From IMG/VR virus record IMGVR_UViG_3300044630_002233, positions 7,787 to 71,786 of that record: a stretch of 64,000 nucleotides of DNA; one strand, written 5' to 3'. Below the pieces are notes generated by a model. The model was given only the letters and a program-made list of their open reading frames with translations, was not told the DNA's origin and did no database searches. The DNA is from a virus. Its lineage: Duplodnaviria; Heunggongvirae; Uroviricota; Caudoviricetes. The position numbers and the translations under genes were made by a program. Position 1 is the stretch's first letter. Each line of letters begins with the position of its first letter. Positions 3,210 through 45,139 of the stretch are shown here, in pieces.

Positions 3210-3715
3210 TGTAATATTTTTCCTCTTTTAGCAATATCAATACCATCTTTTTTAGGTTTCTTTGGTTTTATTACAGGCTCATTAGTTGATACTGCAGCAC
3301 CTGTAACATTAGCAACCTCTTCAAAGAATTTCGTAACTAGAAGTTCTTCTTCAACAAGTGTAATATTATTCTTGTTAATTGTTTCTAACAATGAAGTATA
3401 CTTCTCTTCTAAAAATGCTGTAGAAGTTCTTTTCTCATAACATTCTTTCACTAAGAAGAATGCAGCGATAACACTCTTAAGTCTGTTCTCTCCACCTGGA
3501 AGTTTATTGATTAACCTCTTAACATTAAACACCAAACGTGTTAAGTAATTATACGCATCACGCTCTTGCATTGTCGAGAGTGTGTTTGCTTTCTTAAGGA
3601 CTTTACCTTTTTCATCAATGATTCCTAACTTAAATGCATCCGTTTCTTCAAACGGTTTTACTAGCATCGAAAGGATCCTAAATGCTAACAGATTGTCTAC
3701 TAATCTTGAAGCCAC
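3206..3715 (-). CDS. hypothetical protein (169 aa)
   Basis: ORF with a 4-nt overlap to its neighbour and consistent strand. Confidence 0.45.
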   Translation of the reverse strand: MASRLVDNLLAFRILSMLVKPFEETDAFKLGIIDEKGKVLKKANTLSTMQERDAYNYLTRLVFNVKRLINKLPGGENRLKSVIAAFFLVKECYEKRTSTAFLEEKYTSLLETINKNNITLVEEELLVTKFFEEVANVTGAAVSTNEPVIKPKKPKKDGIDIAKRGKILQ

Positions 3716-4101
3716 TATATGTTCCTTAATACTTTAATTACATTTTCATCCAACTCTATACCCGATAAGGTTAAATTAAAATTTGGTAATTCATCTGGCA
3801 TTCTATCCAGATAAACCAAAAATGTAACAAGAGTCGACCAATACTTCTCTTCTATCTTATAGAACAGCATTTGTGTTGCTGCTTCACCAAATATGTTATA
3901 CAAAACAATAATATGGTTAAGAATCAACCTCTCACGCAATTCGCCATTCTGTTGATACCGAGTAAAGAGTTTCTTAATATACAGAAATCTCTTTAGGTCT
4001 TCTTCGAACTCTGCAATACTATGACATTGTGGATTGTCATAGTGGTGCATTGCGTATAATAAAAAATTATTTTCTGTCAGTTTTTCCAGCAGCATCTTCA
4101 T
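3715..4101 (-). CDS. hypothetical protein (128 aa)
   Basis: ORF abutting neighbours on the same strand. Confidence 0.45.
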   Translation of the reverse strand: MKMLLEKLTENNFLLYAMHHYDNPQCHSIAEFEEDLKRFLYIKKLFTRYQQNGELRERLILNHIIVLYNIFGEAATQMLFYKIEEKYWSTLVTFLVYLDRMPDELPNFNLTLSGIELDENVIKVLRNI

Positions 4102-8351: not shown

Positions 8352-8633
8352 TTAACAGTCCCATGCTTTTCTAGACCAGTAATTTGCGCTAGTCTTATCG
8401 GTTAAATTTCCCTGACCAGAAGATCTTGCACAATAAGATTTCTTGCGGTTAGGATTATTCTTCTTAATACTTAAAGTTTTATCCCCGAAGTTTACTTTTT
8501 GCGCTTTACCGTCGCCATCTGGATCAACATATACCTTCGACTTCTTAACATCACCAGCCATTGGTTTGTTAAGTGGTACAGTCTTACCTTGATAGGTAGC
8601 TTCGTTTAGTAGGAACTCTTTAAATGTTATCAT
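8352..8633 (-). CDS. hypothetical protein (93 aa) with a CTS-like N-terminus
   Basis: MITFKEFLLNE start; contains VYVDPDGDGKAQKVNFGD. Confidence 0.4.
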   Translation of the reverse strand: MITFKEFLLNEATYQGKTVPLNKPMAGDVKKSKVYVDPDGDGKAQKVNFGDKTLSIKKNNPNRKKSYCARSSGQGNLTDKTSANYWSRKAWDC

Positions 8634-11404
8634 TTTGTGTACTTACTATGAGATAGTCTTGCTTTTTCGATCTGACGAACACGTGGAGCCAATTTCATCG
8701 CAATTCTATTTAACACTGGTTTCATCTTAGCGATGCGTTGCTCTAGACGTTCTTTCTCAGCAACTGATAGAGAAGCCAATGGTTTCTTAGCAATACGTTG
8801 CTTGATTGCTTTAATAGCAAGTCTACGTGCACGAGTGTTAATTACAGATTGTGGAGAAGATCTCTTTAAAGCAACTTTCGCTTTTGCCATACGTTTAGAT
8901 TTAGATCTAGCGAAACGTGTCTTTGCTTTAATGCGTTCTAGTCTTGAAAGAACTTCATTCAACGCTTCTTCTTTTAGGCTGTCTTCTAGTTCTTCACCTG
9001 TTTCATCATCAACAATAGCCAACTCTTCATCATCATATCCGTCAAGAATATCTTCCCAATCGTTGTGTTGGTTAACAATGTCATCAATCTCTTTATCGCT
9101 TAAACTAAATTCTTCAACTTCTTCTGAGAAACGATCATTACCTACAGATCTTTTTTCTCCTGGACCATCAGATCCAATCTTAATTAAACGAGAAGGATGT
9201 TTCTTTCCATCTTTACCCATTTTCTCATCAGCTGCTACAACATATCCCTCTTCAACTTCTTCTTTGCGATACTTAGAATATTCTTTTTCTAAATCTAGTT
9301 TACGTTGCTTAACGTGCTCTTGATCCACATCTTTGTTCATTGACAATTGATGTAGTGTTTTACTTTTCTCTTTGTAATCACCGTGTGGGTCTTTTGCGTT
9401 TAAAGCTGTTTCGCTTAAATCAAATTCTTCTTTTACGTTATGCTTGATATTGAAACTGTTGTCTCTGCGAACAGTTCCAAGATGCTTAGCACCTAATTTG
9501 TTTAGAGAGTTGCGACCACTAGCATTCATTGTGTGGTTTACATCATAGCTACCAGATTTATGTTTGTAGATTTCAATACCATCATCTGGATCTCTATGAG
9601 TTTTAACTTTATCGCTCGCATACTTCATTGCAGATTTTAAATCTTTGAAGTTTTCTTTTATGTTTTCTTTTTCTTGCTCATGCTTTTTAGATAGTGTTTC
9701 TTTTTCTCTAGCATGTTTTGCAGCAAGAGCAGCCTTAGCAACTTCACGAGCAAGTTTCTTAGGATCTCCGTTGGCTTCGCCTAAAGAATAGCGAACTTTT
9801 TGTTTTCTTAGGTTATCGTTTTCTGGTTGATTGTGTAAGGTTTCACCAACCTTAGTCATGTTTCTTTCTAACCAATCTGGGATACCATCATTGTCTGTAT
9901 CCACTTCAGTCATTCTACCTTCAGTATCATAGCTGAGTAACTTATTATAGTATGCTTCTTTTAATTTTTGTGGCATTAAGTTTGTATCAAACTCAATACC
10001 GATATCAGTTGCCATCTTCAACATACGTCTTAGGATTTCATATGACTCAGCATTCAATGCTTTGTTCTTAATCTTACGCAATCCCATGTTAACAATCTGC
10101 TCTGGGTTTGTTGTAGCTTCAACATTATCAACACCAAGTGTAGTAGCAATAATTCTAGCTGCTTTAATTTGATCAGCAGAACTTGGTTTTAATGTTTTGT
10201 TTGTTAGGTTTTCAATTACAGTACCAGTTACTTTAACAGAATCATTCATCTCTTCTTTACCTGCTTCTTTATAGTCAGACGCAAGTTTTTCGATATGGTC
10301 GCCATGCGTTTTTAAATAGTTGTCATGGTGTTCTGCTTGACCCATCTTAGCAAGATGCTCTCTTGCTCTATCCATATGAACTTTGACATTGTTGACTACT
10401 TCGGGGGATGCTTGTCTTGTTGCAATCGCAGCCTTAAGATGTCCAAGGTATTCGTCAACTTCTTTCATTGCGTGTAGAATATCTACAGCACTTGCGTCGC
10501 CTGAGTGGATACTAGTGTTGAACGCATCAACAACTGAAGTATCTAAGTCGAAGTGTTTAGTTGTGTAGCCTTGCCAGCTAACTTGATTGTGATCTTCTGG
10601 ATTTTCAAAATCTTCTTGAAGATACACGTCTTTAATCCAACGAGTAAATTTCACGTCTGTTCCTTCTTCTGTTAATAGTAGATGATTTGAACCACGTTTA
10701 ACGACAACGCATTGTTTATTCTCACAAACAACAACGTCACCAACATTAAAGATCTCACCACGGAAATATTTTTCACGTAGGTCATCAACTGTTATATTTA
10801 ATGATTCTTTAACTGGCGCAAGGTCATACGCTTTGCGAATCTCATTCATCAATCTGCGTGCATCCAAGTCGGTAAGAGTTTTAGGAACACCCTTTTTAAA
10901 CTCAGAGAACTTTCCAGCCTTTGCTGCTTCACGCATCTTTGTACCTGACATACCTGTAGCGTTATCTGAATCTGGATCCCTTTCACCAGCAGAAACTACA
11001 GTAACGGTATCAAAGTTGAATTCAGTTCCGTTATACTTTTCTAAAATCTTTTTGTATTCTGCGATACGGTCGCTACCTGCAACCATAACAATATTCTTGT
11101 AACGCTTGTTTAATTCTTTGGCAGCTTCGATAAATGTTCTTACTTGTTCGTTGGCTGCTTTAAAATTAGCTCCAGGAAACATACGCTGGAGGTAATATAC
11201 TTTACGGGAAACTGGGAGTGGGTTTTGCTTCTTGTCTTCAGTCTTAGAAGCATAAATGACATGGTCTGCTCCCTGAGCAGACGCAACTTTTTGAACAGCT
11301 TTTACTAAGAGTTCGTGTCCTGTGGTTGGTGGCTGGAAGCGACCAAACGCAAATACAACCTTCTTGGAAGGCAACTCTTTAATTAGTTGTCTATATTTCT
11401 TCAT
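8630..11404 (-). CDS. NadM-type nucleotidyltransferase (NMNAT superfamily) fused to an ~750-aa charged C-terminal region
   Basis: N-terminal FGRFQPPTTGHELL (archaeal NMNAT GRFQPFHKGH motif) and MSGTKMRE (equivalent to ISST/SGTEIR). The C-terminal ~750 aa are Lys/Glu-rich and low-complexity. The N-terminus MKKYRQLIKELP is like the T4 internal-protein targeting motif. Confidence 0.6.
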   Translation of the reverse strand: MKKYRQLIKELPSKKVVFAFGRFQPPTTGHELLVKAVQKVASAQGADHVIYASKTEDKKQNPLPVSRKVYYLQRMFPGANFKAANEQVRTFIEAAKELNKRYKNIVMVAGSDRIAEYKKILEKYNGTEFNFDTVTVVSAGERDPDSDNATGMSGTKMREAAKAGKFSEFKKGVPKTLTDLDARRLMNEIRKAYDLAPVKESLNITVDDLREKYFRGEIFNVGDVVVCENKQCVVVKRGSNHLLLTEEGTDVKFTRWIKDVYLQEDFENPEDHNQVSWQGYTTKHFDLDTSVVDAFNTSIHSGDASAVDILHAMKEVDEYLGHLKAAIATRQASPEVVNNVKVHMDRAREHLAKMGQAEHHDNYLKTHGDHIEKLASDYKEAGKEEMNDSVKVTGTVIENLTNKTLKPSSADQIKAARIIATTLGVDNVEATTNPEQIVNMGLRKIKNKALNAESYEILRRMLKMATDIGIEFDTNLMPQKLKEAYYNKLLSYDTEGRMTEVDTDNDGIPDWLERNMTKVGETLHNQPENDNLRKQKVRYSLGEANGDPKKLAREVAKAALAAKHAREKETLSKKHEQEKENIKENFKDLKSAMKYASDKVKTHRDPDDGIEIYKHKSGSYDVNHTMNASGRNSLNKLGAKHLGTVRRDNSFNIKHNVKEEFDLSETALNAKDPHGDYKEKSKTLHQLSMNKDVDQEHVKQRKLDLEKEYSKYRKEEVEEGYVVAADEKMGKDGKKHPSRLIKIGSDGPGEKRSVGNDRFSEEVEEFSLSDKEIDDIVNQHNDWEDILDGYDDEELAIVDDETGEELEDSLKEEALNEVLSRLERIKAKTRFARSKSKRMAKAKVALKRSSPQSVINTRARRLAIKAIKQRIAKKPLASLSVAEKERLEQRIAKMKPVLNRIAMKLAPRVRQIEKARLSHSKYTK

Positions 11405-13363: not shown

Positions 13364-14580
13364 CCTTTGATAATTTCTGGCGAGAAGTTTGCCTTACTAA
13401 ACTCTAAGCGATCAACGATCTTTACTGCGCCACCACGCAAGTGGTCAATAGCAACAAACCCTTCTACGCCAGTCGTCTTGAATCCATTAGCAGTCTTTAA
13501 GAAAGTCTTCATAGATCCAGCTTTATTCATCTTGGCGATAATCAATTTCTTGGCTTCAGTCAAAACATTAGCCAACTCAAATACGCTCTCGATAGACTTC
13601 CTGTCATTGTTTGCAAAGAAAGCCATTACAGCTTTGCGCTTTTCGTTGACACCAGCCTTACCTTTTTCTGTCTTCAACTTATCCATGTCTTTCTGATATT
13701 TCCCATGGATATAATCAAACAACTCATCAACGTGTTTCTTTGGATTAGAGATAGTTTCTCCAGCACGCACCTTGGAGTTATTGAAAGTCTTGACCAATGT
13801 AAGCAACTCGGTATTGTTAGAAATGCTGTTTAGAGTATTAGCATTAATAGACTTGAACAACACACCTGCTTTTGATAGTAGGGAAGTTACTTCAGTAGTT
13901 TCTGATTCCGTAAAGGTAGCAGTTCCAGAAACATCTTTGTAGTTGGCGTCATCCATCCAGATTGAACCAACCTTGTTAAATTTGTCAACAATACCTTTAC
14001 CGAAAGTAGCCTTCATTGTTTCAAACGAACTACCTTCATATGTAGTATGCCAAACAACACCAATCTTAGCAGCACGTAGTTTAGTGGCAAGAGGACTATC
14101 ATATGGAACAGCGTATACAATAGTGTTAGGATGGAAGGTTACATACTTCTTACCATCAATCGTTTCTGTTTTCAAATCGTTAGTGAACATCAAGTCGCCT
14201 TGATAAACACCAGACTTGATGCCCAACTTCTTAAACTCTGCCAATGCAACTTTCAGTTTAGCTGCCAAGTCGCCTTCAGTATCCGCATCGATTTCTTTTG
14301 GTGTCTTATAAACCTTTGGCTCTTTATTGAAGACACCTTTCTTTGCTACAAAGAATTTGCCATCACGTGGATCAATACCAGCAAATACAGCTGGCGCACC
14401 GTCCCACTTAACAGTAGTAGTAATTTTTGACTTGCTATTACCAGCCAACATATCACGCAAGTCTTGTAGGAAGTTAATTGCTTTACGTGTACCCAGAACA
14501 CCTTCGTTGAAGATTAAATCCTCAACGTGTTCCATATGGGTATTCTTTTCTTCTCTAATATACTCTTTTAAGTTTAACAT
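13351..14580 (-). CDS. rnlA: RNA ligase 1 (T4 RnlA-like) nucleotidyltransferase
   Basis: Motif I TVKWDGAP (KxDG), and motifs IV/V EGFVAIDHLRGGAVKIVD aligning with T4 RnlA EGYVAVMKDGSHFKIK. CTS-like start MLNLKEYIREE. Confidence 0.55.
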   Translation of the reverse strand: MLNLKEYIREEKNTHMEHVEDLIFNEGVLGTRKAINFLQDLRDMLAGNSKSKITTTVKWDGAPAVFAGIDPRDGKFFVAKKGVFNKEPKVYKTPKEIDADTEGDLAAKLKVALAEFKKLGIKSGVYQGDLMFTNDLKTETIDGKKYVTFHPNTIVYAVPYDSPLATKLRAAKIGVVWHTTYEGSSFETMKATFGKGIVDKFNKVGSIWMDDANYKDVSGTATFTESETTEVTSLLSKAGVLFKSINANTLNSISNNTELLTLVKTFNNSKVRAGETISNPKKHVDELFDYIHGKYQKDMDKLKTEKGKAGVNEKRKAVMAFFANNDRKSIESVFELANVLTEAKKLIIAKMNKAGSMKTFLKTANGFKTTGVEGFVAIDHLRGGAVKIVDRLEFSKANFSPEIIKGWQR

Positions 14581-15194
14581 TATTTCACCAACTTTATTTG
14601 TCCATCAGGTAAAGCGAAGTAGGCATTAAACCTAATCATCGGAAACTCTCTACCTAATTTTAGGAATTCTTTTAGGTTGCTCATGCTGTCATCAAACAGA
14701 GCAACTCTTGAAAATTGTTTAGTCTTTAAATACTCACGAATAATAATCGCCTTCTTAACAGCAGGGATATTATTGTCTTCCATATTACCAGCACGTTCAA
14801 CACGAACCTTGTCAATATCGAAACCATGCTTACGGAAGGTTGCTAGAAATTTGTCACGATTATCAAAGTTCGCTCTAGCAGTAACAATGATAACTTTGTT
14901 CAAAGGGTTTCTGTCTGTAGCGGAAACCAACTTGCTTGCTGTATTTAGCATCTTAGCGATTGGCTTCGATTCTTTATAAAACTTGGCAGCATCTTTGAAT
15001 TCAGAAAAATCGAAGGACTCACCAGCCCCAAGTTTGTAATTATTAAACTCTTGGTTGGTCAGCTTCTTTAGGACTGCGCCATCTTTTTTAACAGCGATCT
15101 GGGCAGTGGTATGGAAGAGGGTGTCGTCAATATCGAATATGGATAGACGACCCAGCGTTTCTTCTTCTTTTAGTAGATATTCTTTAAACCTCAT
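14580..15194 (-). CDS. HAD-family phosphatase (polynucleotide 3'-phosphatase-like)
   Basis: HAD motif I FDIDDTLFH, motif II IIVTAR, and motif IV ALFDDS. No P-loop kinase domain is present. Confidence 0.55.
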   Translation of the reverse strand: MRFKEYLLKEEETLGRLSIFDIDDTLFHTTAQIAVKKDGAVLKKLTNQEFNNYKLGAGESFDFSEFKDAAKFYKESKPIAKMLNTASKLVSATDRNPLNKVIIVTARANFDNRDKFLATFRKHGFDIDKVRVERAGNMEDNNIPAVKKAIIIREYLKTKQFSRVALFDDSMSNLKEFLKLGREFPMIRFNAYFALPDGQIKLVK

Positions 15195-15200
15195 ACCTTT

Positions 15201-15229
15201 ATTATACCTGAATTCTGAATTATTGTAAA
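15201..15229 (-). promoter_or_regulatory. Early sigma70-like promoter (TTTACA-N17-TATAAT)
   Basis: Minus strand reads TTTACAATAATTCAGAATTCAGGTATAAT. The -10 ends 6 nt before the ATG at 15194, so the mRNA may be leaderless. Confidence 0.6.
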
Positions 15230-15235
15230 GTATTC

Positions 15236-15252
15236 CCCTACGGTTTGTAGGG
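15236..15252 (-). terminator. Stem-loop CCCTAC-N5-GTAGGG immediately upstream of the early promoter (PeSL-like cassette)
   Basis: Inverted repeat read from the sequence. The same hairpin-plus-promoter arrangement recurs at 35.5 kb and 38.05 kb. Confidence 0.5.
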
Positions 15253-15263
15253 TTATTATTTTA

Positions 15264-16688
15264 TTAACTAACCTTGTAGTGGACAGAGGAAAAGGCATTC
15301 ATTTTCTTCGCTGCCAGATACATTTTTTTGTATATCGCTGCAGGGTTTGACGCTGTTTCTAATGCGTAAATATAATACAAAAGAACCACTGCTCGTTTGA
15401 CTTCATATTCTGACATCACATCAGTCATACCAGAAACCTTAACCATTTTGAATTGATCCTTAGCTACGTAGGCAGCAAATTTCTCATAGAACTTTTGATT
15501 ACCCATAGCCTTAATTTGAACAGCAACAGTTCCTGCTACTTTCGATACTTTCTTCATATCATCAGTTACAGTAATCATTCCTGGGAATTGAGTATTTAAC
15601 ATGTCTCTAGAAATAGCGCCATCCCAAACTTTGGCTGTCTCTGGTTGCCCTTCGCCATATGTATTAAGTTCATTAGATTTACCACGTGGTCTAAATCTAA
15701 ATCTGTAATTTACATCATCTTTAAACACTTTAAATTGGGGAAGTATATCGAAATAAGAATTAGAAACTTTATACTCGAACTTTTTCCATGGTTTGGTATA
15801 ATTGATGTTCTTAATGTATTTTGCATCAGTCTCAATCTTAGAAATTGTAGCCTTTGGACCAGCAACCTTTTTCAGAGAGATACCAATAATTTCTTTAGAA
15901 ATAAATTTATCTTCAACAAATTTGTTTAGGTCATCGATACCAGCACTCTCAGCGAGAAGTTTTTTATAAAGCGCATCAACAGTTGTTCCTAACTTTGATA
16001 TGCTTGTTTTCTTAACTGCCCATATATCTGATGGGTTCCAGTTATCTTTACTATCAGGAAGAACTTTTGGATCAGTTATTTGATTTAGAAAAGCAGGTTT
16101 CTTCGGATTACTGTCACGATAGAATTCATAACTTTTCATGCTAGACTTTGGTATAACAGTTAGAATAGCATTGATAGTTTTCTCAAAGGACTCATGCCAT
16201 GTTTTATCAAAATCAAACTTAACTGTCTTATTGATTAAATCTTTGGTTGGCATTTTGCCATTGTTAGCGATATACTCCAGACAGAATCTAGTTCCATCTT
16301 CTTGTTGAGCAGTTGTAGGTGTTTTAGAAGAAAGCGCATTGCCTTCCTGATCTATAACATTCTTGTAACCACCACCAGATTTATAGATGTTTACTTTATC
16401 TGCGCCAACTGTAATTAAAAACTTATTGTCTTTTTGATCAGTTACCTTAGCAGTTTTGATTGTGCTGATCTCAGAGATAGCAGCGATAAAACTTTTGGGG
16501 TCAACAATTTTTAACATTGGAACCCCACCTGTTATTTTCCCATCATCTGTTTCGAGAAAGGTAACAGCAGCAAAATCTTTTAATTTAGGAATGATGACTT
16601 TTAATGCTGGCTTCTTATCCACCAGCATATTAAATCCTGCCTTACCCTGAAAATATAACTTTGCCATGCGCCCTCTTATAACAGTCAA
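15264..16688 (-). CDS. hypothetical protein (474 aa)
   Basis: Long ORF with no clear motif. A possible PD-(D/E)xK-like stretch, PSDIW...EIIGISLKK, is weak. Confidence 0.45.
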   Translation of the reverse strand: MTVIRGRMAKLYFQGKAGFNMLVDKKPALKVIIPKLKDFAAVTFLETDDGKITGGVPMLKIVDPKSFIAAISEISTIKTAKVTDQKDNKFLITVGADKVNIYKSGGGYKNVIDQEGNALSSKTPTTAQQEDGTRFCLEYIANNGKMPTKDLINKTVKFDFDKTWHESFEKTINAILTVIPKSSMKSYEFYRDSNPKKPAFLNQITDPKVLPDSKDNWNPSDIWAVKKTSISKLGTTVDALYKKLLAESAGIDDLNKFVEDKFISKEIIGISLKKVAGPKATISKIETDAKYIKNINYTKPWKKFEYKVSNSYFDILPQFKVFKDDVNYRFRFRPRGKSNELNTYGEGQPETAKVWDGAISRDMLNTQFPGMITVTDDMKKVSKVAGTVAVQIKAMGNQKFYEKFAAYVAKDQFKMVKVSGMTDVMSEYEVKRAVVLLYYIYALETASNPAAIYKKMYLAAKKMNAFSSVHYKVS

Positions 16689-16694
16689 TATAAA

Positions 16695-17414
16695 CTATTT
16701 AGGTCGTTTACATGCACGAAGTTTTCGTTCGTACTTTCGATCCCACTTAGAAACCTGCTGAATTATCTTTGGTATGGCTTCGTTGTTACGGAAGTCATAG
16801 TCAAATGTTCTGAGGATGTAGTGGAGGGTTTTAGAATCACGTTTCTTTTTACAACGTGTCAGCAGTTCGCTGATAGTGATGTTGGGTCGTTTTATTTTAA
16901 AGTCGAGATAAACGCAATGAGCATATGCTTGAATCTCATCAAACTCAGAAAGGTATTTTCTCTCTTCGGTTTTCTTTGATGTCTTGGCTTTCTTGTAAGG
17001 AACAACATACCCAGACCATTCATCGCCACGTCTATCATATTGCATGAAGTGTATCAACTCATGCATCTGTGTCTGGATCAATCTATACTTGAAAGATTCC
17101 CATGCTTCGTCAGTAAACTGGAATTTGTTATAGTCTTTCTTGCCGTGGATTATCAGAGTACATTGTCTAAACTCCGCATCATATTCACCACCGACAGCCA
17201 TGTAGTTCTCATATACTTTGGCTTTTGAAAGTTCTGGTCGCCACTCTATTTTGGTGCGCCATTTTTTGAAGTAATTTGTTAGACCTCTTTTATCGTTGCG
17301 ATACTTGTCTAGGTCTACCCACACTTTTGCAGGAATGAGTTTGGCTCTAAATGGACGCTCATAAAAATTGAGCATCTCCATCCAATCGAAGTTGAGTTCT
17401 TTGAGGAAGCGCAT
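16695..17414 (-). CDS. putative zinc metallopeptidase (HExxH)
   Basis: Single HELIH motif (TQMHELIHFMQYD); the protein is basic. Confidence 0.4.
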   Translation of the reverse strand: MRFLKELNFDWMEMLNFYERPFRAKLIPAKVWVDLDKYRNDKRGLTNYFKKWRTKIEWRPELSKAKVYENYMAVGGEYDAEFRQCTLIIHGKKDYNKFQFTDEAWESFKYRLIQTQMHELIHFMQYDRRGDEWSGYVVPYKKAKTSKKTEERKYLSEFDEIQAYAHCVYLDFKIKRPNITISELLTRCKKKRDSKTLHYILRTFDYDFRNNEAIPKIIQQVSKWDRKYERKLRACKRPK

Positions 17415-18940: not shown

Positions 18941-20254
18941 TTATCCTAAAAAGTCTGCGAGAGAACCAGCACTTGCCTTTGGATGATAAGTGTGAAGCAT
19001 ATGTTCTCCACCTTTCTCACGCAAGAAGTCATACCATTCTTCCTCTTCCCACATTCCTGGAGAAACACCATTCCACAATTTCTTATACAAGCGATGCTCA
19101 GTATTCAAGCGACGTTGTTCAACGTATTCAAAACGAAAATCTTCATATTCTTTGCTACCAAGTTCTAGCATTTTTTCACGGAAGTATACAACCAAACTTA
19201 CACGCTCTGAACCTTCTTCACAAACAATAGGTGTATTGCCATGGATGATTTCGTGGTTATTAACCAACAACAAATCACCTGGACGCACGTTAACAGCCAT
19301 ACGGATCTCAGGGAAAATCAAATACCCACCTGAGTAACGACCATCGTTAGATAATGTCAACAGATTTGAGAGACCAGAATCCAAATCACCAGCATCACGA
19401 TGAGCAGCAGTGCGGAATGTTTTGTTTACAGTAACTGTTGTAAATGGTGTTTCTGGGATAAGGAATCTAGAATCAATTTTCTTAGCTGCTGCCATTTGAT
19501 TGCCATATCTCCAAGGCAACAACTCAGCAAAACCTTTAGCCAAGTGCTGTAAGAATGGGTATGCCATTTTAAACTTATCAAAGTTGTCTCTTGTATAAGT
19601 TGTAGCACGACCATAAGGGATACGTGGGTAGCGATCAAACCAACCAGCGATACCAGAATCAACTGGATTGCCATAAGATGTTTCGCTAATCATCTTCATG
19701 GTTTCTTCACATGACTTAGCACGTTCTTCTGGCGTCATAGTTTTGATGGAATCAACCCACTCATCAAAATTAAATTTACCACGGAAACGTGAGATAACCC
19801 AAACATTGTTTTTGCCAGAGCCAAGTGCCTTTAAACGTGACTCTGCTGTTGGATATTTTGAGCGAACATTTTCAATTGGGTCACCAGAAAATAGAGATGC
19901 CTTGCGACCATCAAGAAGCGCATTAATCATTTCTTCCTGATAGTTAGTAACCCACTCACGTCCTTCACCATTAACTTGTGTTCCAGCTTTAATACCTGAA
20001 GCCAAGCCACGATTCTCTGTTCGTTGAGCAGCTTCTCTTAGTCCATGATATGCTGCGTCTTGTTCTTCTTTAGTAAAGAAGTTCTTACGGAATTTGAAAG
20101 CGATCTTCTGTTCGTTTGGCGCTTCACCATAACCAACTGGCAAATAGCAATCAGTATCTTCCTCGATTAGAATATCATAATTTGATTCATCAAGAAACAT
20201 ACCCATAAGATTTTCACAATCATGTTTAGTTTCTGCTACAATAACTCGTGTCAT
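18941..20254 (-). CDS. 2OG-Fe(II) dioxygenase, TET/JBP-like (nucleobase hydroxylase candidate)
   Basis: AAHRDAGDL...LSNLLTL is comparable to TET2 AHAHRDLHNM...STLVCTL. The distal His is in HEIIHGNTP, followed by RVSLVVYF (the RxS 2-oxoglutarate contact). It sits next to a glucosyltransferase-like gene. Confidence 0.4.
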   Translation of the reverse strand: MTRVIVAETKHDCENLMGMFLDESNYDILIEEDTDCYLPVGYGEAPNEQKIAFKFRKNFFTKEEQDAAYHGLREAAQRTENRGLASGIKAGTQVNGEGREWVTNYQEEMINALLDGRKASLFSGDPIENVRSKYPTAESRLKALGSGKNNVWVISRFRGKFNFDEWVDSIKTMTPEERAKSCEETMKMISETSYGNPVDSGIAGWFDRYPRIPYGRATTYTRDNFDKFKMAYPFLQHLAKGFAELLPWRYGNQMAAAKKIDSRFLIPETPFTTVTVNKTFRTAAHRDAGDLDSGLSNLLTLSNDGRYSGGYLIFPEIRMAVNVRPGDLLLVNNHEIIHGNTPIVCEEGSERVSLVVYFREKMLELGSKEYEDFRFEYVEQRRLNTEHRLYKKLWNGVSPGMWEEEEWYDFLREKGGEHMLHTYHPKASAGSLADFLG

Positions 20255-27149: not shown

Positions 27150-27174
27150 AGAGGGAGTCTCCTCCCTCTTTTTT
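27150..27174 (+). terminator. Plus-strand-oriented intrinsic terminator hairpin (AGAGGGAG-TCTC-CTCCCTCT followed by TTTTT)
   Basis: Perfect 8-bp GC-rich stem followed by a T5 run on the plus strand only. The minus-strand reading lacks a downstream U tract. Confidence 0.45.
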
Positions 27175-27327
27175 AAGACTTAGGTGGTTGGGTTTTACCG
27201 TTTACCCATTCCCAATCTTCATCTGTCATTGGGATCCAATTAGTCAATTCTATTCCCCTTAGCATACGCAGCAGCTTTTGCTTTGCGTGCTTCGATAATT
27301 GACTCGATCATGACGTTGAAGAATGTC

Positions 27328-28025: not shown

Positions 28026-28033
28026 TATTTATA
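28026..28033 (-). promoter_or_regulatory. T4-type late promoter motif TATAAATA upstream of the long hsp20 leader
   Basis: Minus strand reads TATAAATA, about 190 nt upstream of the hsp20 ATG. Confidence 0.35.
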
Positions 28034-28058
28034 ATGAAAAACCCACCGAAGTGGGTTT
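28031..28058 (-). terminator. Intrinsic terminator (CCCAC-TTCG-GTGGG plus T run) after the pqqA-like gene
   Basis: Minus strand reads AAACCCACTTCGGTGGGTTTTTCATTAT. The plus strand is also followed by a T-rich stretch, so the hairpin may terminate in both directions. Confidence 0.6.
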
Positions 28059-28117
28059 CTCTATATGTTTTTTAAACGCAATCGCCCAAACTTTCGAGCC
28101 AGCGTTCCAAATCAGAC

Positions 28118-29430: not shown

Positions 29431-30426
29431 TCACTTAAACTTACATGATGTCATAATCTCCGTCATCGCTGCCATGGTATTAAGTTCTTGGTTGGCAACA
29501 AAAGCAGACTTGTATTGATAGTCCGCAAGAATAACAACAAGTTGGGGGATACTTTTTGGTTCAACATATTCTGACGCAGTAGTATATAGTTGGTCAAATA
29601 AACCAGCTGTATCCATATCAGAATTACGTGCGACCCATTTGCGCACTTCGTTGAAGTTCATACCCTTAAGATTGGCAATTAGATCTTTGAATGATTCTTC
29701 AGAAACACTTGACAGAATATCTGCATCGATAGTTCCGCTAACACTGTATCGTTGTAGTTCATTAAGAATACGACGATAGTCAGGGAAGTGCTTCATAATC
29801 AATTCAGCAACTACCTTAGAATCAAAAGCAACTTTCTCTTCCGTAAGGATAGCAGAAACTCTCTTGAAGAATTTACCAGCGATCTCTTGCTTTTCTTTTG
29901 CGTCAATCTTAAACTCTACAACAGCACAACGACTGTGTAGTGGTTCAATGATTCTATTTTTAAAGTTACATGTAAAGATGAATCGGCAGTTATTAGAAAA
30001 CTCTTCGATAAATGCACGCAACGCAGGTTGAACAGAATCAGCATTCATATAATCTGCTTCATCAATAATAACAACACGCTTTCTTGCGTCAAGAGAAACT
30101 GCTGCTGCGAAAGAAGTGATTGTAGTTCGCAGAGTGTCAATCTTACGCCCTTCATCTGAACCATTGATCACAATATACTCAGCACCAACTTCATTACATA
30201 GTGCCTTCGCTGCTGTCGTTTTACCTGTACCTGCTGAACCGCAGAACAGGAAGTTTGGAAGTTCACCAGATTGGATAAACTCTTTGAATGTATTTTTCAA
30301 ACCTTCAGGCAAAATACAATCATCAATTTTTTGTGGGCGATATTTCTCAACCCATAGATACTGCTCACGTTCACTCATAATATTAGTTTCTTTCAAAGTC
30401 AAAAAGTGTTGCTCTATTTTTATCAC
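29431..30426 (-). CDS. 44: clamp loader large subunit (gp44, RFC-like AAA+)
   Basis: Walker A GSAGTGKTT, DEAD-like VIIDEADY, and the SRC-like motif of RFC-family clamp loaders. Confidence 0.85.
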   Translation of the reverse strand: MIKIEQHFLTLKETNIMSEREQYLWVEKYRPQKIDDCILPEGLKNTFKEFIQSGELPNFLFCGSAGTGKTTAAKALCNEVGAEYIVINGSDEGRKIDTLRTTITSFAAAVSLDARKRVVIIDEADYMNADSVQPALRAFIEEFSNNCRFIFTCNFKNRIIEPLHSRCAVVEFKIDAKEKQEIAGKFFKRVSAILTEEKVAFDSKVVAELIMKHFPDYRRILNELQRYSVSGTIDADILSSVSEESFKDLIANLKGMNFNEVRKWVARNSDMDTAGLFDQLYTTASEYVEPKSIPQLVVILADYQYKSAFVANQELNTMAAMTEIMTSCKFK

Positions 30427-30706
30427 GCTTACGTGCTATTTGTAGACGTTCACGTCGTTTCCGATCACGGTCTTTTTGCATTTTAACACGGGCATCCCAA
30501 GCAAGAGCGCAAATAGGTTCAACATCATTTGCGTGTTTACGTTTGGTTTTGTCTTTCATATAAAATTCGCCGAGTGGCAAAAACTTCTTATACGCTTTAC
30601 ACCAAGAAACAGCACGTGTTTTGTTTCCATCCATGTCAGTAACCCACATGTCTCTAGCTCTCTCACGTGTAACAGTAGATGTGTTTTCACTTCGTTTGTG
30701 TGTCAT
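30383..30706 (-). CDS. hypothetical basic protein (107 aa)
   Basis: Arg/Lys-rich ORF between genes 45 and 44, overlapping gene 44 by about 44 nt. Confidence 0.35.
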   Translation of the reverse strand: MTHKRSENTSTVTRERARDMWVTDMDGNKTRAVSWCKAYKKFLPLGEFYMKDKTKRKHANDVEPICALAWDARVKMQKDRDRKRRERLQIARKRDKNRATLFDFERN

Positions 30707-30728
30707 AATATAGATCCATAATAAAGTA

Positions 30729-30746
30729 AGGGGAGTTTCCTCCCCT
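30729..30746 (-). terminator. Stem-loop (AGGGGAG-AAA-CTCCCCT) immediately after the gene 45 stop
   Basis: 7-bp GC-rich inverted repeat; the minus strand is followed by a T-rich stretch, TACTTTATTAT. Confidence 0.45.
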
Positions 30747-30750
30747 GTGT

Positions 30751-31453: not shown

Positions 31454-31482
31454 ATTATACCTCATTTTGACTCACTTGTCAA
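31454..31482 (-). promoter_or_regulatory. Early sigma70-like promoter (TTGACA-N17-TATAAT) for gene 45
   Basis: Minus strand reads TTGACAAGTGAGTCAAAATGAGGTATAAT. Confidence 0.6.
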
Positions 31483-31595
31483 ATTTTTTTCTTGCTTACG
31501 TTCGATAGGTGGTGGAAAGTAGGGTTCAATTATGTAATGTTGAGCACCCCACCATCCAAACGCACTAAAGAATCCCCAAAGAATGACTTCCGCAA

Positions 31596-32390
31596 TCATT
31601 TCAGCATCAGAGCATTAAAGTTTGCAGGAACTACAATAGTTTGCACCTTACCATTCTTAATGCCTTCTGAAATATTCAATGCAGCCTGAGCATTCATAAA
31701 CGCAATAGAACTAGCAGAGTTGTTTGCTAGAGCAGCCATACGTTCAGCTTCTTTCTTAGCAGTCTGCACTTCTACTTCCTTCTGTTTGTATTCGTTCTTT
31801 GCACGAACAAGAGCATTGGCAGATTCTACAACAGAGTCAGCAGGAACTACATTACGAATCAAAACCTGAGAGATGGTAATAGAACCATCCAACTTTTCTT
31901 CAGCCAGATTCTTTTGAATCTCTTCACGAATAATGGTCTCCATAGCCTCACGATTGTCTGCCATATCAAGTGCTTCATACTTACGTGCAGCTTTGTAAAT
32001 AGCATTACGTGCATTTTGAACAATGTAGTTATACATTACATAAGTGTCGCCTTTCGCTTCAGCATGGAAAGATTTATTCTTTGTAGAATAAAGTTCAGCG
32101 ACTTGCTGAGGGTTGATGTTATAAACAACCACAGCATCTACGTCTTTCATAGTAGAGTTGTCTTTAGCAACAGGAGTCATATTCTCCAGCACCACGTTCA
32201 CATCCTTAACTGGGAAAGTCAGAACATCACCAATCAAGACTTGGTTGAAAGATCCAGGAAGCAGTTCTCCAGGTTTGACTTGTTTATCAAAGCCAACACG
32301 AACACCAACTTCACCTGTCTCAATACGAGTACAACCAGTTGCCAAAGCAACAGCAGCAACCAAAGCAGAGATTTTAAATACGCTTTTCAT
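31596..32390 (-). CDS. SPFH/band-7 (prohibitin/stomatin-like) lipoprotein
   Basis: Lipoprotein signal MKSVFKISALVAAVALATGC and an SPFH-like body with a coiled-coil C-terminus. Start reassigned to the ATG at 32390, preceded by AAAGGAAA. Confidence 0.6.
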   Translation of the reverse strand: MKSVFKISALVAAVALATGCTRIETGEVGVRVGFDKQVKPGELLPGSFNQVLIGDVLTFPVKDVNVVLENMTPVAKDNSTMKDVDAVVVYNINPQQVAELYSTKNKSFHAEAKGDTYVMYNYIVQNARNAIYKAARKYEALDMADNREAMETIIREEIQKNLAEEKLDGSITISQVLIRNVVPADSVVESANALVRAKNEYKQKEVEVQTAKKEAERMAALANNSASSIAFMNAQAALNISEGIKNGKVQTIVVPANFNALMLK

Positions 32391-32402
32391 AATCAATTTC
32401 CT

Positions 32403-32579
32403 TTAAAACAAAACAACAAGAGTGGTAAGAACAATAATAACAAGAAGGGAAATGCCAACACTATATGCTGCCATCTTAACTACTTTCCATTGTTCTTTCT
32501 TTGTAAACTTTCTGAATAGATCTATACTGATAAAGAAAATAACAAAGAGAGAAATAAAAGCCAGAATTATTTTAATCAT
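32403..32579 (-). CDS. small two-TM membrane protein (58 aa), NfeD-like partner of the SPFH protein
   Basis: Hand translation gives MIKIILAFISLFVIFFISIDLFRKFTKKEQWKVVKMAAYSVGISLLVIIVLTTLVVLF. Its ATG overlaps the upstream stop (ATGA). Not in the ORF track. Confidence 0.45.
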   Translation of the reverse strand: MIKIILAFISLFVIFFISIDLFRKFTKKEQWKVVKMAAYSVGISLLVIIVLTTLVVLF

Positions 32580-32914
32580 TTTGAATCCTTTGAATATTTC
32601 ACATCGTGCTCATATAAGAACATTAAGCAACACATTGCATGTGCCAAGTGGTTCTTGCCAGTTTCTGGATCATTTTGCTCACCTTCTTTCCATGCCCAAA
32701 GGTGTCTTTGCATTGCGTCAAAGTACCTGCGCTTGGAATCAGGAACATGCTTCCAGTTATCTGGTTCATACTTCTCTGCGCCAAATGTTAGAATCTCTAC
32801 AGTGGCTTTTAATGCAAGCGGAGGGACTAAACCATATTGGAGTTTACCACCGTCAAACTTGCGACCACCTGTTGTTGCGTTTTGTGATTTTTTAACTTCT
32901 TCTTTAGTAGCCAT
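32576..32914 (-). CDS. conserved phage protein (112 aa), nucleotide-pyrophosphohydrolase-associated domain family
   Basis: FDGGKLQYGLVPPLALKATVEILTFGAEKYEPDNW is a motif I recall from phage proteins that are often fused to MazG-type domains. Confidence 0.35.
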   Translation of the reverse strand: MATKEEVKKSQNATTGGRKFDGGKLQYGLVPPLALKATVEILTFGAEKYEPDNWKHVPDSKRRYFDAMQRHLWAWKEGEQNDPETGKNHLAHAMCCLMFLYEHDVKYSKDSK

Positions 32915-33942: not shown

Positions 33943-33971
33943 ATTATACCTGAACATTGATTAAATGTCAA
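33943..33971 (-). promoter_or_regulatory. Early sigma70-like promoter (TTGACA-N17-TATAAT)
   Basis: Minus strand reads TTGACATTTAATCAATGTTCAGGTATAAT; the -35 overlaps the cobS stop codon. Confidence 0.6.
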
Positions 33972-35143
33972 GCACTTGCAACTTCTTCAGAAGTTGTTTC
34001 TTGCAAGGGTTGTTCAACTTGCAACTCGCCAGAAGAAACCTTCTCGAACAAGTCATTAAATGCGATTCGAGTGGAGTCATCAAAACGATTGGTACAAAGC
34101 TCGATTGCCTTTTTCTGATTCTTAAAGATAGAGAAGGCACGAACAATATGAATCAAACGACGTGTAGTGATTGTTTCATCCACGCCACCAGCGTCAAACG
34201 TGCGACGGATAGCGTCTGCCCACTTGACCATGTTATCTGCAAAGTCTTCATCAATAGCATTGTAAGACTTCATCAGATTCATAATGATACGCTTTTCAAC
34301 CTTAGAATCTGGATATTCTTGGTTGAACGTAACCGCAAAACGCTCGAGGAACGCTTCGTTGAGTACGTTAGTACCGATGTAACGACCATCGTCACTACCC
34401 TTACCCTTTGTGTTAGCAGTAGCGAACACATTGAATCCAGGTGCGGGAACGATCATTTCGTTCTTAAGTTTGAAGTAATAGGGTTTGCCCTCGAGAATGG
34501 GTTGCAAACACAACAGGGTGTTAGCAGAGCCAGCGTCAATCTCATCAAGTAGCAGTACGGATCCTGTACGCATAGCGATGACGACTGGTCCTTCAACGAT
34601 CTCTACGTTGCCATTCACAAGGGTCTTAGTACCGATGAGTTGGTCTTCGTCAGTCATAGTGTTAAGGTTAACACGAATCAGAGCACGACGTTGCTTTGCG
34701 CAAATCTGCTCAATGGTAGTAGACTTACCGTTGCCAGTTGGACCCGAAATATAAGCAGGGTAAAATTGCTTTGACGAAATAATTTGTTCGAGGTCTTTGT
34801 GATTACCGAATGCGACATAGTTAGCATCCAAACGTGGGATGAGCGATTCAGTATCCGTAAAATCAACCACAACAGACTCCATTTTCTTTGCTGATGGTTC
34901 AGCGTATTCAGTTACAGGTTTGCGAGCCATAGGTTGTGTTACGGAACCTCCAGGGATCGCATAAAGTCCACGACCCAGTTGAGTTTGCATCAACCATAGT
35001 GGATGGAAAGGGTTACCCATCGATTCACGAACAGTCAACAGTTGACTGCGAGTAACAGTACCTGAAGTCTGAACATCGGGAAACATCTCAAAGAGTTTCT
35101 GCTCAAACTCAGCTTTTTGCGCTTCAGTAATTTTAGCCATCAT
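33968..35143 (-). CDS. cobS: CobS-like AAA+ ATPase (MoxR family; cobaltochelatase subunit homolog)
   Basis: Walker A GPTGNGKST, Walker B LLDEID, and sensor ATANTKGKG...GRYIGT. It is paired with a downstream CobT/VWA gene as in marine myophages. Confidence 0.7.
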   Translation of the reverse strand: MMAKITEAQKAEFEQKLFEMFPDVQTSGTVTRSQLLTVRESMGNPFHPLWLMQTQLGRGLYAIPGGSVTQPMARKPVTEYAEPSAKKMESVVVDFTDTESLIPRLDANYVAFGNHKDLEQIISSKQFYPAYISGPTGNGKSTTIEQICAKQRRALIRVNLNTMTDEDQLIGTKTLVNGNVEIVEGPVVIAMRTGSVLLLDEIDAGSANTLLCLQPILEGKPYYFKLKNEMIVPAPGFNVFATANTKGKGSDDGRYIGTNVLNEAFLERFAVTFNQEYPDSKVEKRIIMNLMKSYNAIDEDFADNMVKWADAIRRTFDAGGVDETITTRRLIHIVRAFSIFKNQKKAIELCTNRFDDSTRIAFNDLFEKVSSGELQVEQPLQETTSEEVASA

Positions 35144-35180: not shown

Positions 35181-35209
35181 ATTATAGCACATGCAAGGAT
35201 TATTGTCAA
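35181..35209 (-). promoter_or_regulatory. Early sigma70-like promoter (TTGACA-N17-TATAAT) for cobS
   Basis: Minus strand reads TTGACAATAATCCTTGCATGTGCTATAAT. Confidence 0.6.
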
Positions 35210-35418
35210 GCAATTTCTTCCACGGTTACAACATACTTACGTCCATTGCCATCTTCAACTACCATGGTCTTCTTTGTAGATTTGAAAGCACCATTGCTAT
35301 CCAAATCCCAGTTTATCTTTCCAACTTCGTTCAGCGGAACAGGCGCAAAGGCATCTTCCTTGGCAGCAACCAACGCTTTACGAACCCTGTCTGCAATATA
35401 ATCACAATAAACTAACAT
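35206..35418 (-). CDS. hypothetical protein (70 aa)
   Basis: ORF with a GAGGAG RBS, downstream of the PeSL-like promoter at 35.47 kb. Confidence 0.4.
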   Translation of the reverse strand: MLVYCDYIADRVRKALVAAKEDAFAPVPLNEVGKINWDLDSNGAFKSTKKTMVVEDGNGRKYVVTVEEIA

Positions 35419-35450: not shown

Positions 35451-35479
35451 ATTATACAGGAATTCTGAATTATTGTAAA
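35451..35479 (-). promoter_or_regulatory. Early sigma70-like promoter (TTTACA-N17-TATAAT), near-identical copy of the 15.2-kb promoter
   Basis: Minus strand reads TTTACAATAATTCAGAATTCCTGTATAAT; about 28 of 29 nt match the 15201..15229 copy. Confidence 0.6.
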
Positions 35480-35493
35480 GCATTATTTTCATT

Positions 35494-35540
35494 CCCCTAC
35501 GGTTTATAGGGGATTAGAAACCCTCTACCAGAGAGGGTTT
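35494..35540 (-). terminator. Tandem stem-loops after cobT (AAACCCTCT-loop-AGAGGGTTT and CCCCTA-loop-TAGGGG)
   Basis: A 9-bp and a 6-bp inverted repeat between the cobT stop at 35544 and the early promoter (PeSL-like cassette). Confidence 0.5.
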
Positions 35541-37790: not shown

Positions 37791-37796
37791 AATATA

Positions 37797-37825
37797 ATTA
37801 TACCTCAGGTGTGAATTAATGTCAA
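37797..37825 (-). promoter_or_regulatory. Early sigma70-like promoter (TTGACA-N17-TATAAT), perfect consensus
   Basis: Minus strand reads TTGACATTAATTCACACCTGAGGTATAAT, followed 6 nt later by ATGATG. Confidence 0.6.
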
Positions 37826-37974
37826 GCGAAAGCCAAGTCGTGCTCATAGCGTGTCAAGATACGCTCGACTTCAACACGATTCATCAATGCACCCTTCTCA
37901 ACTTGCAAGATGTAATCAAGGCAGTAGTCATACGCCAAACAGATAAGTTCTTTGTCAGTAAATCCAGCCCACAT
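37822..37974 (-). CDS. hypothetical small protein (50 aa)
   Basis: Hand translation gives MWAGFTDKELICLAYDYCLDYILQVEKGALMNRVEVERILTRYEHDLAFA, with a GGAG RBS. Below the track cutoff. Confidence 0.35.
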   Translation of the reverse strand: MWAGFTDKELICLAYDYCLDYILQVEKGALMNRVEVERILTRYEHDLAFA

Positions 37975-38006: not shown

Positions 38007-38035
38007 ATTATACAGGATTTTTGAATTAAAGTAAA
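38007..38035 (-). promoter_or_regulatory. Early sigma70-like promoter (TTTACT-N17-TATAAT)
   Basis: Minus strand reads TTTACTTTAATTCAAAAATCCTGTATAAT. Confidence 0.5.
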
Positions 38036-38040: not shown

Positions 38041-38098
38041 CCAAAACTCCTCTGTTTCAGAGGGTTCCAAAACCCTACTGGGCGTAGGGGTATTTTAT
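38041..38098 (-). terminator. Tandem stem-loops after gene 46 (CCCTAC-loop-GTAGGG and CCTCTG-AAA-CAGAGG plus TTTT)
   Basis: Third copy of the hairpin-plus-promoter cassette; the second hairpin is followed by TTTTGGGGG. Confidence 0.5.
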
Positions 38099-41907: not shown

Positions 41908-41998
41908 AATTTAAACCTTATTTTTTTGTTTTAACCAACTGTAATCATTATACTTTAATTATCTTTAAAAAGCAAGTTTGTTTTATTGGAAAATATAT

Positions 41999-42045
41999 TT
42001 GCTTCCAAACTTGACAACAGGCATAATTACGGTGTCAGGGTTGAA
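41999..42045. repeat. 45-nt palindromic repeat element, copy 2, upstream of gene 55
   Basis: TTGCTTCCAAACTTGACAACAGGCATAATTACGGTGTCAGGG; about 40 nt are identical to copy 1 at 2228..2272, which is preceded by a similar AAAAGCAAG block. Confidence 0.7.
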
Positions 42046-42053
42046 GATAGGAA

Positions 42054-45041: not shown

Positions 45042-45068
45042 AGTGTTATCTCTAATAGGTAATATGAC

Positions 45069-45076
45069 TATTTATA
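45069..45076 (-). promoter_or_regulatory. T4-type late promoter TATAAATA
   Basis: Minus strand reads TATAAATA 28 nt upstream of the gp3-like ATG. Confidence 0.5.
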
Positions 45077-45080
45077 AGAT

Positions 45081-45106
45081 AAAAAAAGAGAGACCGAAGT
45101 CTCTCT
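45081..45106 (-). terminator. Strong intrinsic terminator after the major capsid gene (AGAGAGAC-TTCG-GTCTCTCT plus T7)
   Basis: Minus strand reads AGAGAGACTTCGGTCTCTCTTTTTTTAT. Confidence 0.7.
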
Positions 45107-45139
45107 TTTAAATACCACTCTTATTGGTGGCTCAACCAA

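Follow-up and report, generated by a model that had tools for sequence, protein, structure and literature searches.

What does a short hairpin-plus-promoter unit do when it recurs at three distant sites in one phage genome, and does its recurrence matter for the genes around it? The question is raised by a stretch of 64,000 nucleotides from IMG/VR record IMGVR_UViG_3300044630_002233 (positions 7,787 to 71,786, hereafter the window), whose source is a T4-like myovirus with nearly all genes on the minus strand. In the intergenic gaps at 15.2, 35.5 and 38.0 kb (cassettes A, B and C), one or two CCCT..AGGG hairpins lie on this gene strand, directly upstream of TTTAC(A/T)-N17-TATAAT. An original prediction had likened them to the promoter-early-stem-loop (PeSL) elements of T4-type phages. 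This reading is supported here, as the architecture matches the published description (PMC2839356, PMC4122927), and we consider the cassettes to be probably PeSL-type composite regulatory elements of a T4-like phage, with a gene-shuffling consequence. The shuffling is a pattern observed by comparison between relatives; the recombination that would underlie it is taken from the published PeSL model.

The composites predicted at 15.2, 35.5 and ~38.05 kb proved real when the three intergenic sites were read (coordinates in the table below), and the order known from PeSLs (stop codon, stem-loop, -35/N17/-10, Shine-Dalgarno (SD) sequence and start codon) is found at all three, with SD leaders in B and C. 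The CCCTAC/GTAGGG stem expected at every site is present in A and C, and B carries instead a CCCTAT variant with a G.U wobble; the second hairpin expected at some sites exists in B and C, A having only one. The cassette A hairpin begins 11 nt past the stop codon of the open reading frame (ORF) 15264-16667 and ends 6 nt before the -35, with no U-tract on the gene strand. Its loop and 3' flank (GGAAT) are identical to those of the second hairpin of cassette B, where a 32-nt leader containing GAGGAG separates the promoter from the ATG of a 70-aa ORF. In cassette C, the first hairpin starts a few nt past the stop codon of gp46 (38095-39813), the related contigs L002 and L004 having the same stem with another loop, and a leader containing AGGAG lies between the promoter and the ATG of a 50-aa ORF (the MW-ORF). 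Cassette A lacks a usable leader, a variation on the published PeSL layout: the ATG of ORF 14580-15194 sits 6 nt past the -10 in a leaderless-type arrangement that is also seen in contigs L057 and L008. Predicted RNA stabilities are -9.6 kcal/mol for A, -23.6 for the hairpin pair of B and -25.7 for C (z = -2.8 to -3.5).

The window has a GC content of only 38%, and loose sigma70-like matches are common in it (74 versus 57 expected in one 20-kb scan), as would be expected if AT-rich intergenic DNA simply mimicked the promoter and hairpin consensus. Stricter counts leave practically no room for such a chance resemblance. With at most one mismatch, the promoter pattern was found 12 times versus 2.0 expected, always on the minus strand, and perfect TT[G/T]AC[A/T]-N17-TATAAT promoters (12/12 or 11/12) are confined to the minus strand (11, versus 0 on the plus strand). 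CCCTAC..GTAGGG occurs twice (0.00 expected, never in shuffles), and four of the five window matches to the relaxed CCCTNN..NNAGGG fall inside the three cassettes. A chance origin is thus refuted by the shuffles, in which the observed counts were never reached, by the strand bias and by the recurrence of the same composite in more than 120 independent contigs.

This recurrence emerged from an exact scan of IMG/VR for CCCTAC-N4-6-GTAGGG-N2-30-TTKACW-N17-TATAAT, which retrieved the composite from at least 120 viral contig stretches; some related contigs of ~168-174 kb hold at least 4-7 copies each, the window covering 64 kb of its genome. In a sample chosen by promoter with no regard to the hairpin, 32 of 155 distinct promoters bear the hairpin, similar to 3 of 11 in the window. 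Contrary to what would have refuted the original prediction, the cassettes are thus not unique to the three loci. Conversely, ~20 distinct hairpins are present in 917 kb of DNA unbiased with respect to the hairpin, where roughly 0.2 would be expected (our own estimate, based on 12 fixed bases and 3 spacings); a promoter lies just downstream of 12. Hairpins of the family are intergenic in 145 of 158 cases and start most often right at a stop codon. The usual layout is a stop codon (often a TAA abutting the stem), a hairpin with a 5-nt loop, a T-rich spacer, the -35, a spacer beginning with 'ttaattc', the -10, a conserved leader and the ATG. An additional motif, TTTAAAATCAA(T/G)(G/A)ACTTAC(G/A) or its partial reverse TTGATTTTAAA, stands between the stop codon and the hairpin or promoter in other clade members (for example at 3695-3725 and 6233-6258 of contig L211, and at many other loci); it is absent from the three cassettes of the window.

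The likeness between cassettes extends well beyond the hexamers. As the original prediction had noted, the promoters at 15201..15229 and 35451..35479 are nearly identical, differing at only 2 of 29 positions, and from hairpin to -10, A and B agree at 49 of 52 aligned positions (94%), including an identical loop, apart from one 9-nt indel. Beyond the hairpin on one side and the -10 on the other, the two cassettes abruptly cease to resemble each other. Cassette C matches A and B at 77-80%, and the family consensus reaches into the spacer and leader, so that the repeats are conserved over tens of nucleotides as in PeSLs. A and B are each only 79-81% identical to their own positional orthologues, below the 94% between the two paralogues, which suggests copying or gene conversion between the two sites. 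One could instead regard A, B and C as ordinary terminator-promoter junctions, alike through functional constraint and common descent, with no special role in recombination and amid small early genes of the kind that turn over fast in T4-like phages. The 49 shared positions are hard to reconcile with this, since they include a freely variable loop and end sharply, pointing to copying or conversion; a nearly invariant inner stem with variable loops is, in addition, not required by termination alone.

The three cassettes belong to a larger set of early promoters. All 11 perfect sigma70-type promoters lie on the gene strand between 15 and 45 kb, in the replication/early region, and eight of them (at 20401, 21870, 26154, 31454, 33943, 35181, 37797 and 44474) have no hairpin. 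A version in which the promoters face both ways was dropped, there being 0 perfect matches on the plus strand. Two hairpin-less promoters are companions of cassettes C and B, respectively: P37797 forms a direct repeat with the cassette C promoter and P35181 lies upstream of the gene for an AAA_5/CbbQ_C ATPase (33968-35143).

These pairs of repeats frame slots of variable gene content. In the slots on either side of the 767-aa gene (the gp46 side and the AAA ATPase side), different contigs carry nothing, the MW-ORF, the 70-aa ORF, members of ORF clusters cl208, cl422 or cl774, or others, the ORF being bracketed each time by two early-promoter repeats. Several contigs have two stem-loop-plus-promoter units with an ORF between them where others have a single unit. 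Relative to the 767-aa gene, the MW-ORF is on the upstream side in the window, L002 and L211, and its homologue in L003/L004 (42% identity, E 1e-11) is on the downstream side. The 70-aa ORF is unrelated to the ORF in the same slot of L003/L004 and has a homologue in a different context in L058. Between L004 and L211, gp46 is 83% identical and the next two genes only 46% and 70%, a discordance that places a breakpoint at the cassette C junction. At cassette A, L057 keeps the hairpin, the promoter and the two downstream genes with two unrelated ORFs upstream, and L008, a relative of 98% identity, carries one additional ORF at the far end of a 467-aa ORF, further upstream. The association with variable gene modules that had been proposed is therefore visible beside all three cassettes, where slots differ in content between relatives. 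The occurrence of one and the same small ORF in different promoter-flanked slots of related phages is not what ordinary junctions would lead one to expect.

To quantify this plasticity, we clustered the 3,834 ORFs called across all retrieved loci, applying a strand preference and removing duplicates, and compared the conservation of gene adjacency between contigs by a permutation test. Adjacency conservation was 0.16-0.19 at hairpin-plus-promoter junctions and 0.18-0.21 at promoter-only junctions, versus 0.38-0.39 at junctions without an element (p about 2e-4 for both element types). Cassette junctions thus lie next to variable, non-core ORFs, as PeSLs do, with an effect equal at promoter-only junctions and not specific to the hairpin.

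We also compared the window with contigs that are 96-99% identical to it, in which six distinct indels or replacements were found (table). Directly after gp45, the window and some strains have a 107-aa ORF, other strains of 96-98% identity a 189-aa ORF, and the more distant L004 both in tandem; this swap is bordered by a GGGGAG-gaaa-CTCCCC hairpin (without a promoter) plus TTATTATG on one side and by the TATTATG start region of gp44 on the other. L226 has just one Bax1-I family gene (224 aa) in place of a module made up of a 58-aa ORF, a Band_7 protein (264 aa) and a 45-aa ORF. The first joint lies inside P31454, each allele having its own -35 with homology from the spacer on, and the second at the SD/start of the first module gene. 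Overlapping alignment ends suggest that the 208-nt insertion in the 924-aa ORF is a repeat-unit expansion. The gp23/tail-tube-like junction consists, in the window, only of a terminator and late-promoter gap.

A number of these observations weigh against a shuffling role for the cassettes and are those that ordinary junctions would predict. None of the six events lies at A, B or C, so that recent turnover is not seen there; only one joint, that in P31454, is inside an early promoter, and other short intergenic motifs (start-codon regions, CTAAAT, terminator/late-promoter gaps) served as joints as well. Near-identical strains show no presence/absence polymorphism in the slot between the 767-aa gene and the AAA gene: no ORF-less variant was found, all seven of the seven readable contigs with an identical AAA protein keeping the 70-aa ORF. 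Cassette positions are kept at orthologous sites in relatives down to about 50% amino acid identity. Adjacency conservation did not differ significantly between hairpin-plus-promoter and promoter-only junctions, so that a contribution of the hairpin to plasticity is not shown, and the association between element and plasticity may only reflect the location of early genes in plastic regions. The adjacency statistic is also supportive only, because contigs are non-independent, loci were partly selected for the element and the ORF caller is crude. Against these points stand the A/B similarity, the small ORFs in different slots and the one replacement joint that does fall inside an early promoter. 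We therefore give the ordinary-junction explanation a real, if minor, share of credence and judge it unlikely next to the PeSL reading.

Coordinates of the cassettes, companion promoters, slot ORFs and close-strain events (positions in the window unless another contig is named)
Feature	Position	Strand	Description
Cassette A hairpin	15236..15252	-	CCCTAC-aaacc-GTAGGG; -9.6 kcal/mol, z -2.9
Cassette A early promoter	15201..15229	-	TTTACA-N17-TATAAT
Cassette B hairpin 1	35518..35540	-	AAACCCTCT-ctggt-AGAGGGTTT; just past stop codon of 767-aa gene
Cassette B hairpin 2	35494..35512	-	CCCCTAt-aaac-cGTAGGGG, G.U wobble
Cassette B early promoter	35451..35479	-	TTTACA-N17-TATAAT
Cassette C hairpin 1	38073..38089	-	CCCTAC-gccca-GTAGGG, then TTTT
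Cassette C hairpin 2	about 38045..38068	-	CCCTCTG-aaa-CAGAGG, then AGTTTTG
Cassette C early promoter	38007..38035	-	TTTACT-N17-TATAAT
MW-ORF	37822..37974	-	50 aa, 'MW...DLAFA'; between cassette C and P37797
70-aa ORF	35206..35418	-	between cassette B and P35181
Companion early promoter P37797	37797..37825	-	TTGACA-N17-TATAAT; direct repeat with cassette C promoter
Companion early promoter P35181	35181..35209	-	TTGACA-N17-TATAAT; upstream of AAA_5/CbbQ_C ATPase gene
Early promoter P33943	33943..33971	-	same family; downstream of AAA gene, whose TGA stop is inside -35
Early promoter P31454	31454..31482	-	upstream of gp45; joint of module replacement in 97% identical contig L226
Event: swap directly after gp45	30383-30750; L007 8617-9218; L004 12731-13590	-	107-aa ORF versus unrelated 189-aa ORF
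Event: ORF insertion	16667-16696
Event: 208-nt insertion in 924-aa ORF (8630-11404)	9252-9265; L008 11379-11588		98% identical strain
Event: module replacement	31464-32586; L226 5825-6528	-	97% identical strain
Event: 73-74-aa ORF	45042-45139; L002 549-775; L224, L227 139-363		between gp23 and 177-aa tail-tube-like gene
Event: divergent end after regA	L224

We then asked what the hairpin itself might be. Across the clade its inner stem is nearly invariant and its loop sequence free, with a loop of 5 nt in 93 of 105 family hairpins. Such a 17-bp palindrome, CCCTAC-N5-GTAGGG, with half-sites 11 bp apart centre to centre, could be a DNA or RNA site of a dimeric protein encoded by phage or host, and not primarily a terminator; the bound protein could regulate the adjacent early promoter, or be a site-specific recombination or nuclease factor. 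The authors of the PeSL description themselves speculated that the conserved stem is a protein target (PMC2839356). The distances from hairpin to -35 form clusters at 7 nt and at about 16 nt, which differ by roughly one turn of the helix; overall they range from 2 to 38 nt with no single phasing. A covariation test of the outer stem on the 105 hairpins was not significant but for a marginal excess at pair 1, and outer-stem pairing is accounted for by the A-richness of the 5' flank and the T-richness of the 3' flank. This result would also suit a protein site, as would the distribution of U-tracts: they are present at the first hairpin of B (TTTC) and at both hairpins of C (TTTT and AGTTTTG) and absent at A and at the second hairpin of B (GGAAT...), which makes termination at these two hairpins doubtful. 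A consensus scanner finds A, the second hairpin of B and the first hairpin of C terminator-like in the antisense direction only.

Other features of the family do not fit a protein site. Pairing is kept by compensated stem variants (CCCTCT/AGAGGG, CCCTAG/CTAGGG, CCCTCA/TGAGGG and CCCCTG/CAGGGG) and by G.U wobble, and variants with UUCG-type tetraloops occur. Like intrinsic terminators, the family hairpins mostly begin at a stop codon, and in 74 of 105 a T-tract follows the stem. The analysis turned up no candidate for a binding protein, and only about 20% of family promoters have the hairpin, from which we conclude that the element is dispensable for promoter function, a further point against a protein site. 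We thus favour a putative terminator, attenuator or 3'-stabiliser over the protein site, to which we assign little probability. Equally improbable is its furthest extension, in which the palindrome would be the recognition site of a phage-encoded recombination/nuclease factor or RNA-binding regulator and the cassettes a system of site-directed, integron-like gene capture; if true, such a capture system would span a large uncultured clade of aquatic T4-like phages. Repetitive extragenic palindrome (REP)-like elements and small RNAs were also considered for the hairpins and dropped, given the lack of an Rfam match and the constant coupling to a stop codon and a promoter.

Under the PeSL reading, the GC-rich hairpin or hairpins past the upstream stop codon would form in the early transcript and terminate, attenuate or 3'-stabilise it, insulating the next unit. 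The near-consensus -35/-10 would be recognised at early times of infection by the sigma70 RNA polymerase of the host in its unmodified form, as its sequence, strand bias and position suggest, and the downstream gene would be expressed via a ~30-nt SD leader (B and C) or directly from the AUG at the predicted start (A). Consensus hexamers, strand bias and hairpin stability argue for these promoter and terminator activities at the level of sequence. Because the ~50-60 nt unit, and the promoter alone, recur as same-strand direct repeats, they could provide short homology 'linkers' for phage recombination, by which small early ORFs flanked by repeats would be deleted, inserted or moved between promoter-bearing junctions. 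Recombination between flanking copies, giving mini-circles or deletions, is a candidate step suggested by the topology, in which an ORF between a stem-loop-plus-promoter unit and a second promoter (with or without stem-loop) in one contig corresponds to a single element in another.

The early promoters show two peculiarities of their own. At 33966-33971, 35204-35209 and 37820-37825 (all minus strand), the upstream gene terminates within the -35: its TGA stop is part of TTGACA in P33943, in P35181 (stop of the 70-aa ORF) and in P37797 (stop of the MW-ORF). GC usually precedes this stop, so that the upstream proteins end in Ala-stop. Leaderless-type early promoters are found at 15192-15229 and 37788-37825 (minus strand) and family-wide in loci L009-L221. 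In P37797, an ATGATG 6 nt past the -10 opens the 748/767-aa gene, the true start of which is likely 37790, giving a gene of 748 aa at 35544-37790, in agreement with independent gene calls and with L004. As the ATG lies exactly 6 nt past the -10, transcription of both gene 14580-15194 and the 767-aa ORF is predicted to begin at the A of the AUG. Among 689 distinct perfect promoters of the clade, an ATG occurs at offset 6 in 139, at offset 5 in 6 and at offset 7 in 21, and the offset-6 ATGs open an ORF of at least 40 codons in 95 of 139 cases (68%), versus about 29% for ATGs at offsets 10-19.

Two other kinds of intergenic element were noticed in the window. At about 27150-27180, 28030-28065 and 45075-45115 (minus strand), TATAAATA, the motif of T4-type late promoters, comes directly after a GC hairpin with a good T-tract; these sites combine a terminator with a late promoter, and their stems bear no relation to CCCTAC. 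A further family of intergenic repeats is represented at 2158-2275 and 41908-42053 (both minus strand), with about 60 nt near-identical. It comprises ATCATCCTTGACACCGTAATTATGCCTGTTGTCAAGTTTGGAAGCAA, with a TTGACA..TGTCAA inverted repeat, then an AAGCAA-loop-TTGCTT hairpin with a T-run, then AGTATAAT; it has no Rfam match. L002 keeps the repeat at the orthologous 42-kb site, and in L004 its conservation is weak. Its TTGCTTTTT arm resembles the T4 MotA box, and the repeat is possibly a 'PmSL' analogue.

The phage itself has the replication gene set of a T4-type myovirus, the kind of genome in which PeSLs are known. The window encodes a gp43 family B polymerase, a gp41-like DnaB helicase, the gp44 clamp loader, the gp45 clamp and a gp46/gp47-like pair (SMC plus phosphoesterase), and Pfam calls on contigs identical to it add UvsY, UvsW, regA and gp23. 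The genes that the original prediction placed beside the cassettes stand in part: gp46 holds, and the labels 'HAD/ligase' and 'cobT/cobS' were not confirmed. Support for these labels consists of a weak PHROG polynucleotide-kinase match, DUF6267, a phrog_459 'peptidase' and the AAA_5/CbbQ_C ATPase, and searches of PDB sequences with the two genes downstream of cassette A gave no matches for 'HAD/ligase'. A 437-aa protein (18941-20254, minus strand) with a Tet/JBP 2OG-Fe(II) oxygenase domain (PF12851, E 2e-23) adjoins the helicase gene and, judging by this domain, may have a role in base hypermodification of the phage DNA. Scans of the whole window gave no Rfam match at the gathering threshold and no tRNA or tmRNA.

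Deposited phages are distant. The best gp43 matches, at 56% identity, are to marine and cyanophage T4-likes, and the best gp46 match, at 50%, is to Methylophilales phage Melnitz; megablast of 6 kb of the window returned no nucleotide match among deposited phages. Blastn of cassette B against deposited phages found only spurious, AT-rich matches to the promoter half in Lactococcus phages and no cultured phage with the cassette. In Melnitz, the closest cultured phage by gp46, the gp46-gp45 interval has early promoters and no CCCT..AGGG hairpin. Contigs that equal the window or share 96-99% identity with it are present in several public metagenome assemblies. PeSLs are not reported for this phage group in the searchable literature, and they were judged unlikely in cyanophage S-PM2.

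Until now, PeSLs have been described in three cultured T4-like lineages; the cassettes extend them, with a conserved stem of their own, to a large uncultured clade of more than a hundred metagenomic contigs. They reveal no new mechanism. They add concrete examples of small early ORFs in different promoter-flanked slots, which support the view that short regulatory repeats help to shuffle accessory genes in nature, and a simple signature, CCCTAC-N5-GTAGGG plus TTKACW-N17-TATAAT, with which both early transcription-unit boundaries and candidate plastic slots can be marked in these genomes.

How do the cassettes compare with known systems? PeSLs were defined for coliphages RB49 and phi1, in which experiments demonstrated their activity as promoters and terminators and in mini-circle formation (Arbiol et al. 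2010, PMC2839356). They were extended to T4/PST and KVP40/nt-1, and every lineage has a conserved stem sequence peculiar to it (Comeau et al. 2014, PMC4122927). With those of RB49/phi1, the cassettes share a T4-type genome, an intergenic location, a size of about 60-110 nt and the order of stop codon, GC-rich stem-loop, near-consensus sigma70 -35/N17/-10, SD and ATG; they also share the many copies per genome, the enrichment beside variable small ORFs and the presence of ORFs between two copies where relatives have one. The RB49/phi1 stems, however, are G-run/C-run and mostly lie between or over the -35 and -10, whereas the stem of the present cassettes, CCCTAC-N5-GTAGGG or its variant CCCTCT/AGAGGG, is found only upstream of the -35, itself of a different type, TTTAC(A/T) at cassettes A-C and TTGACA at the companion promoters. 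The RB49/phi1 activities are, moreover, experimental, whereas the cassettes are known from the sequence of an uncultured phage and host.

The T4/PST and KVP40/nt-1 elements are closer in form: the stem-loop is just upstream of the promoter, the stem is lineage-specific (AAAGGG-loop-CCCTTT in nt-1), 'half' elements consisting of a promoter or a hairpin alone lie near indels, and the T4/PST promoter consensus TTTACW-N17-TAYWAT has the -35 type of cassettes A-C (PMC4122927). They differ in their stem consensus and in lineage, the present clade being another, uncultured one (gp43 at most 56% and gp46 at most 50% identical to any deposited phage). Many differences between the close relatives of those pairs abut PeSLs, in contrast to 0 of 6 events at the three cassettes. 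Operon boundaries with a terminator and a promoter, and the 'morons' of lambdoid phages, likewise have a hairpin past a stop codon and then a promoter, insulating a small gene with its own promoter, but no 50-60 nt conserved between sites; here the sequence repeats (94% between A and B) and the stem is clade-wide. Integron attC cassettes, an analogy drawn by the PeSL authors (PMC2839356), likewise consist of small ORFs, associated with promoters, between imperfect palindromic repeats, and excision as circles is proposed for them; here, in contrast, there is no integrase and no attI/attC, each cassette has its own promoter, and homologous recombination by the phage machinery is presumed. Compared with the known PeSLs, what is new is the stem consensus with its constant position upstream of the -35, the uncultured clade that carries it and the leaderless-type layout of cassette A.

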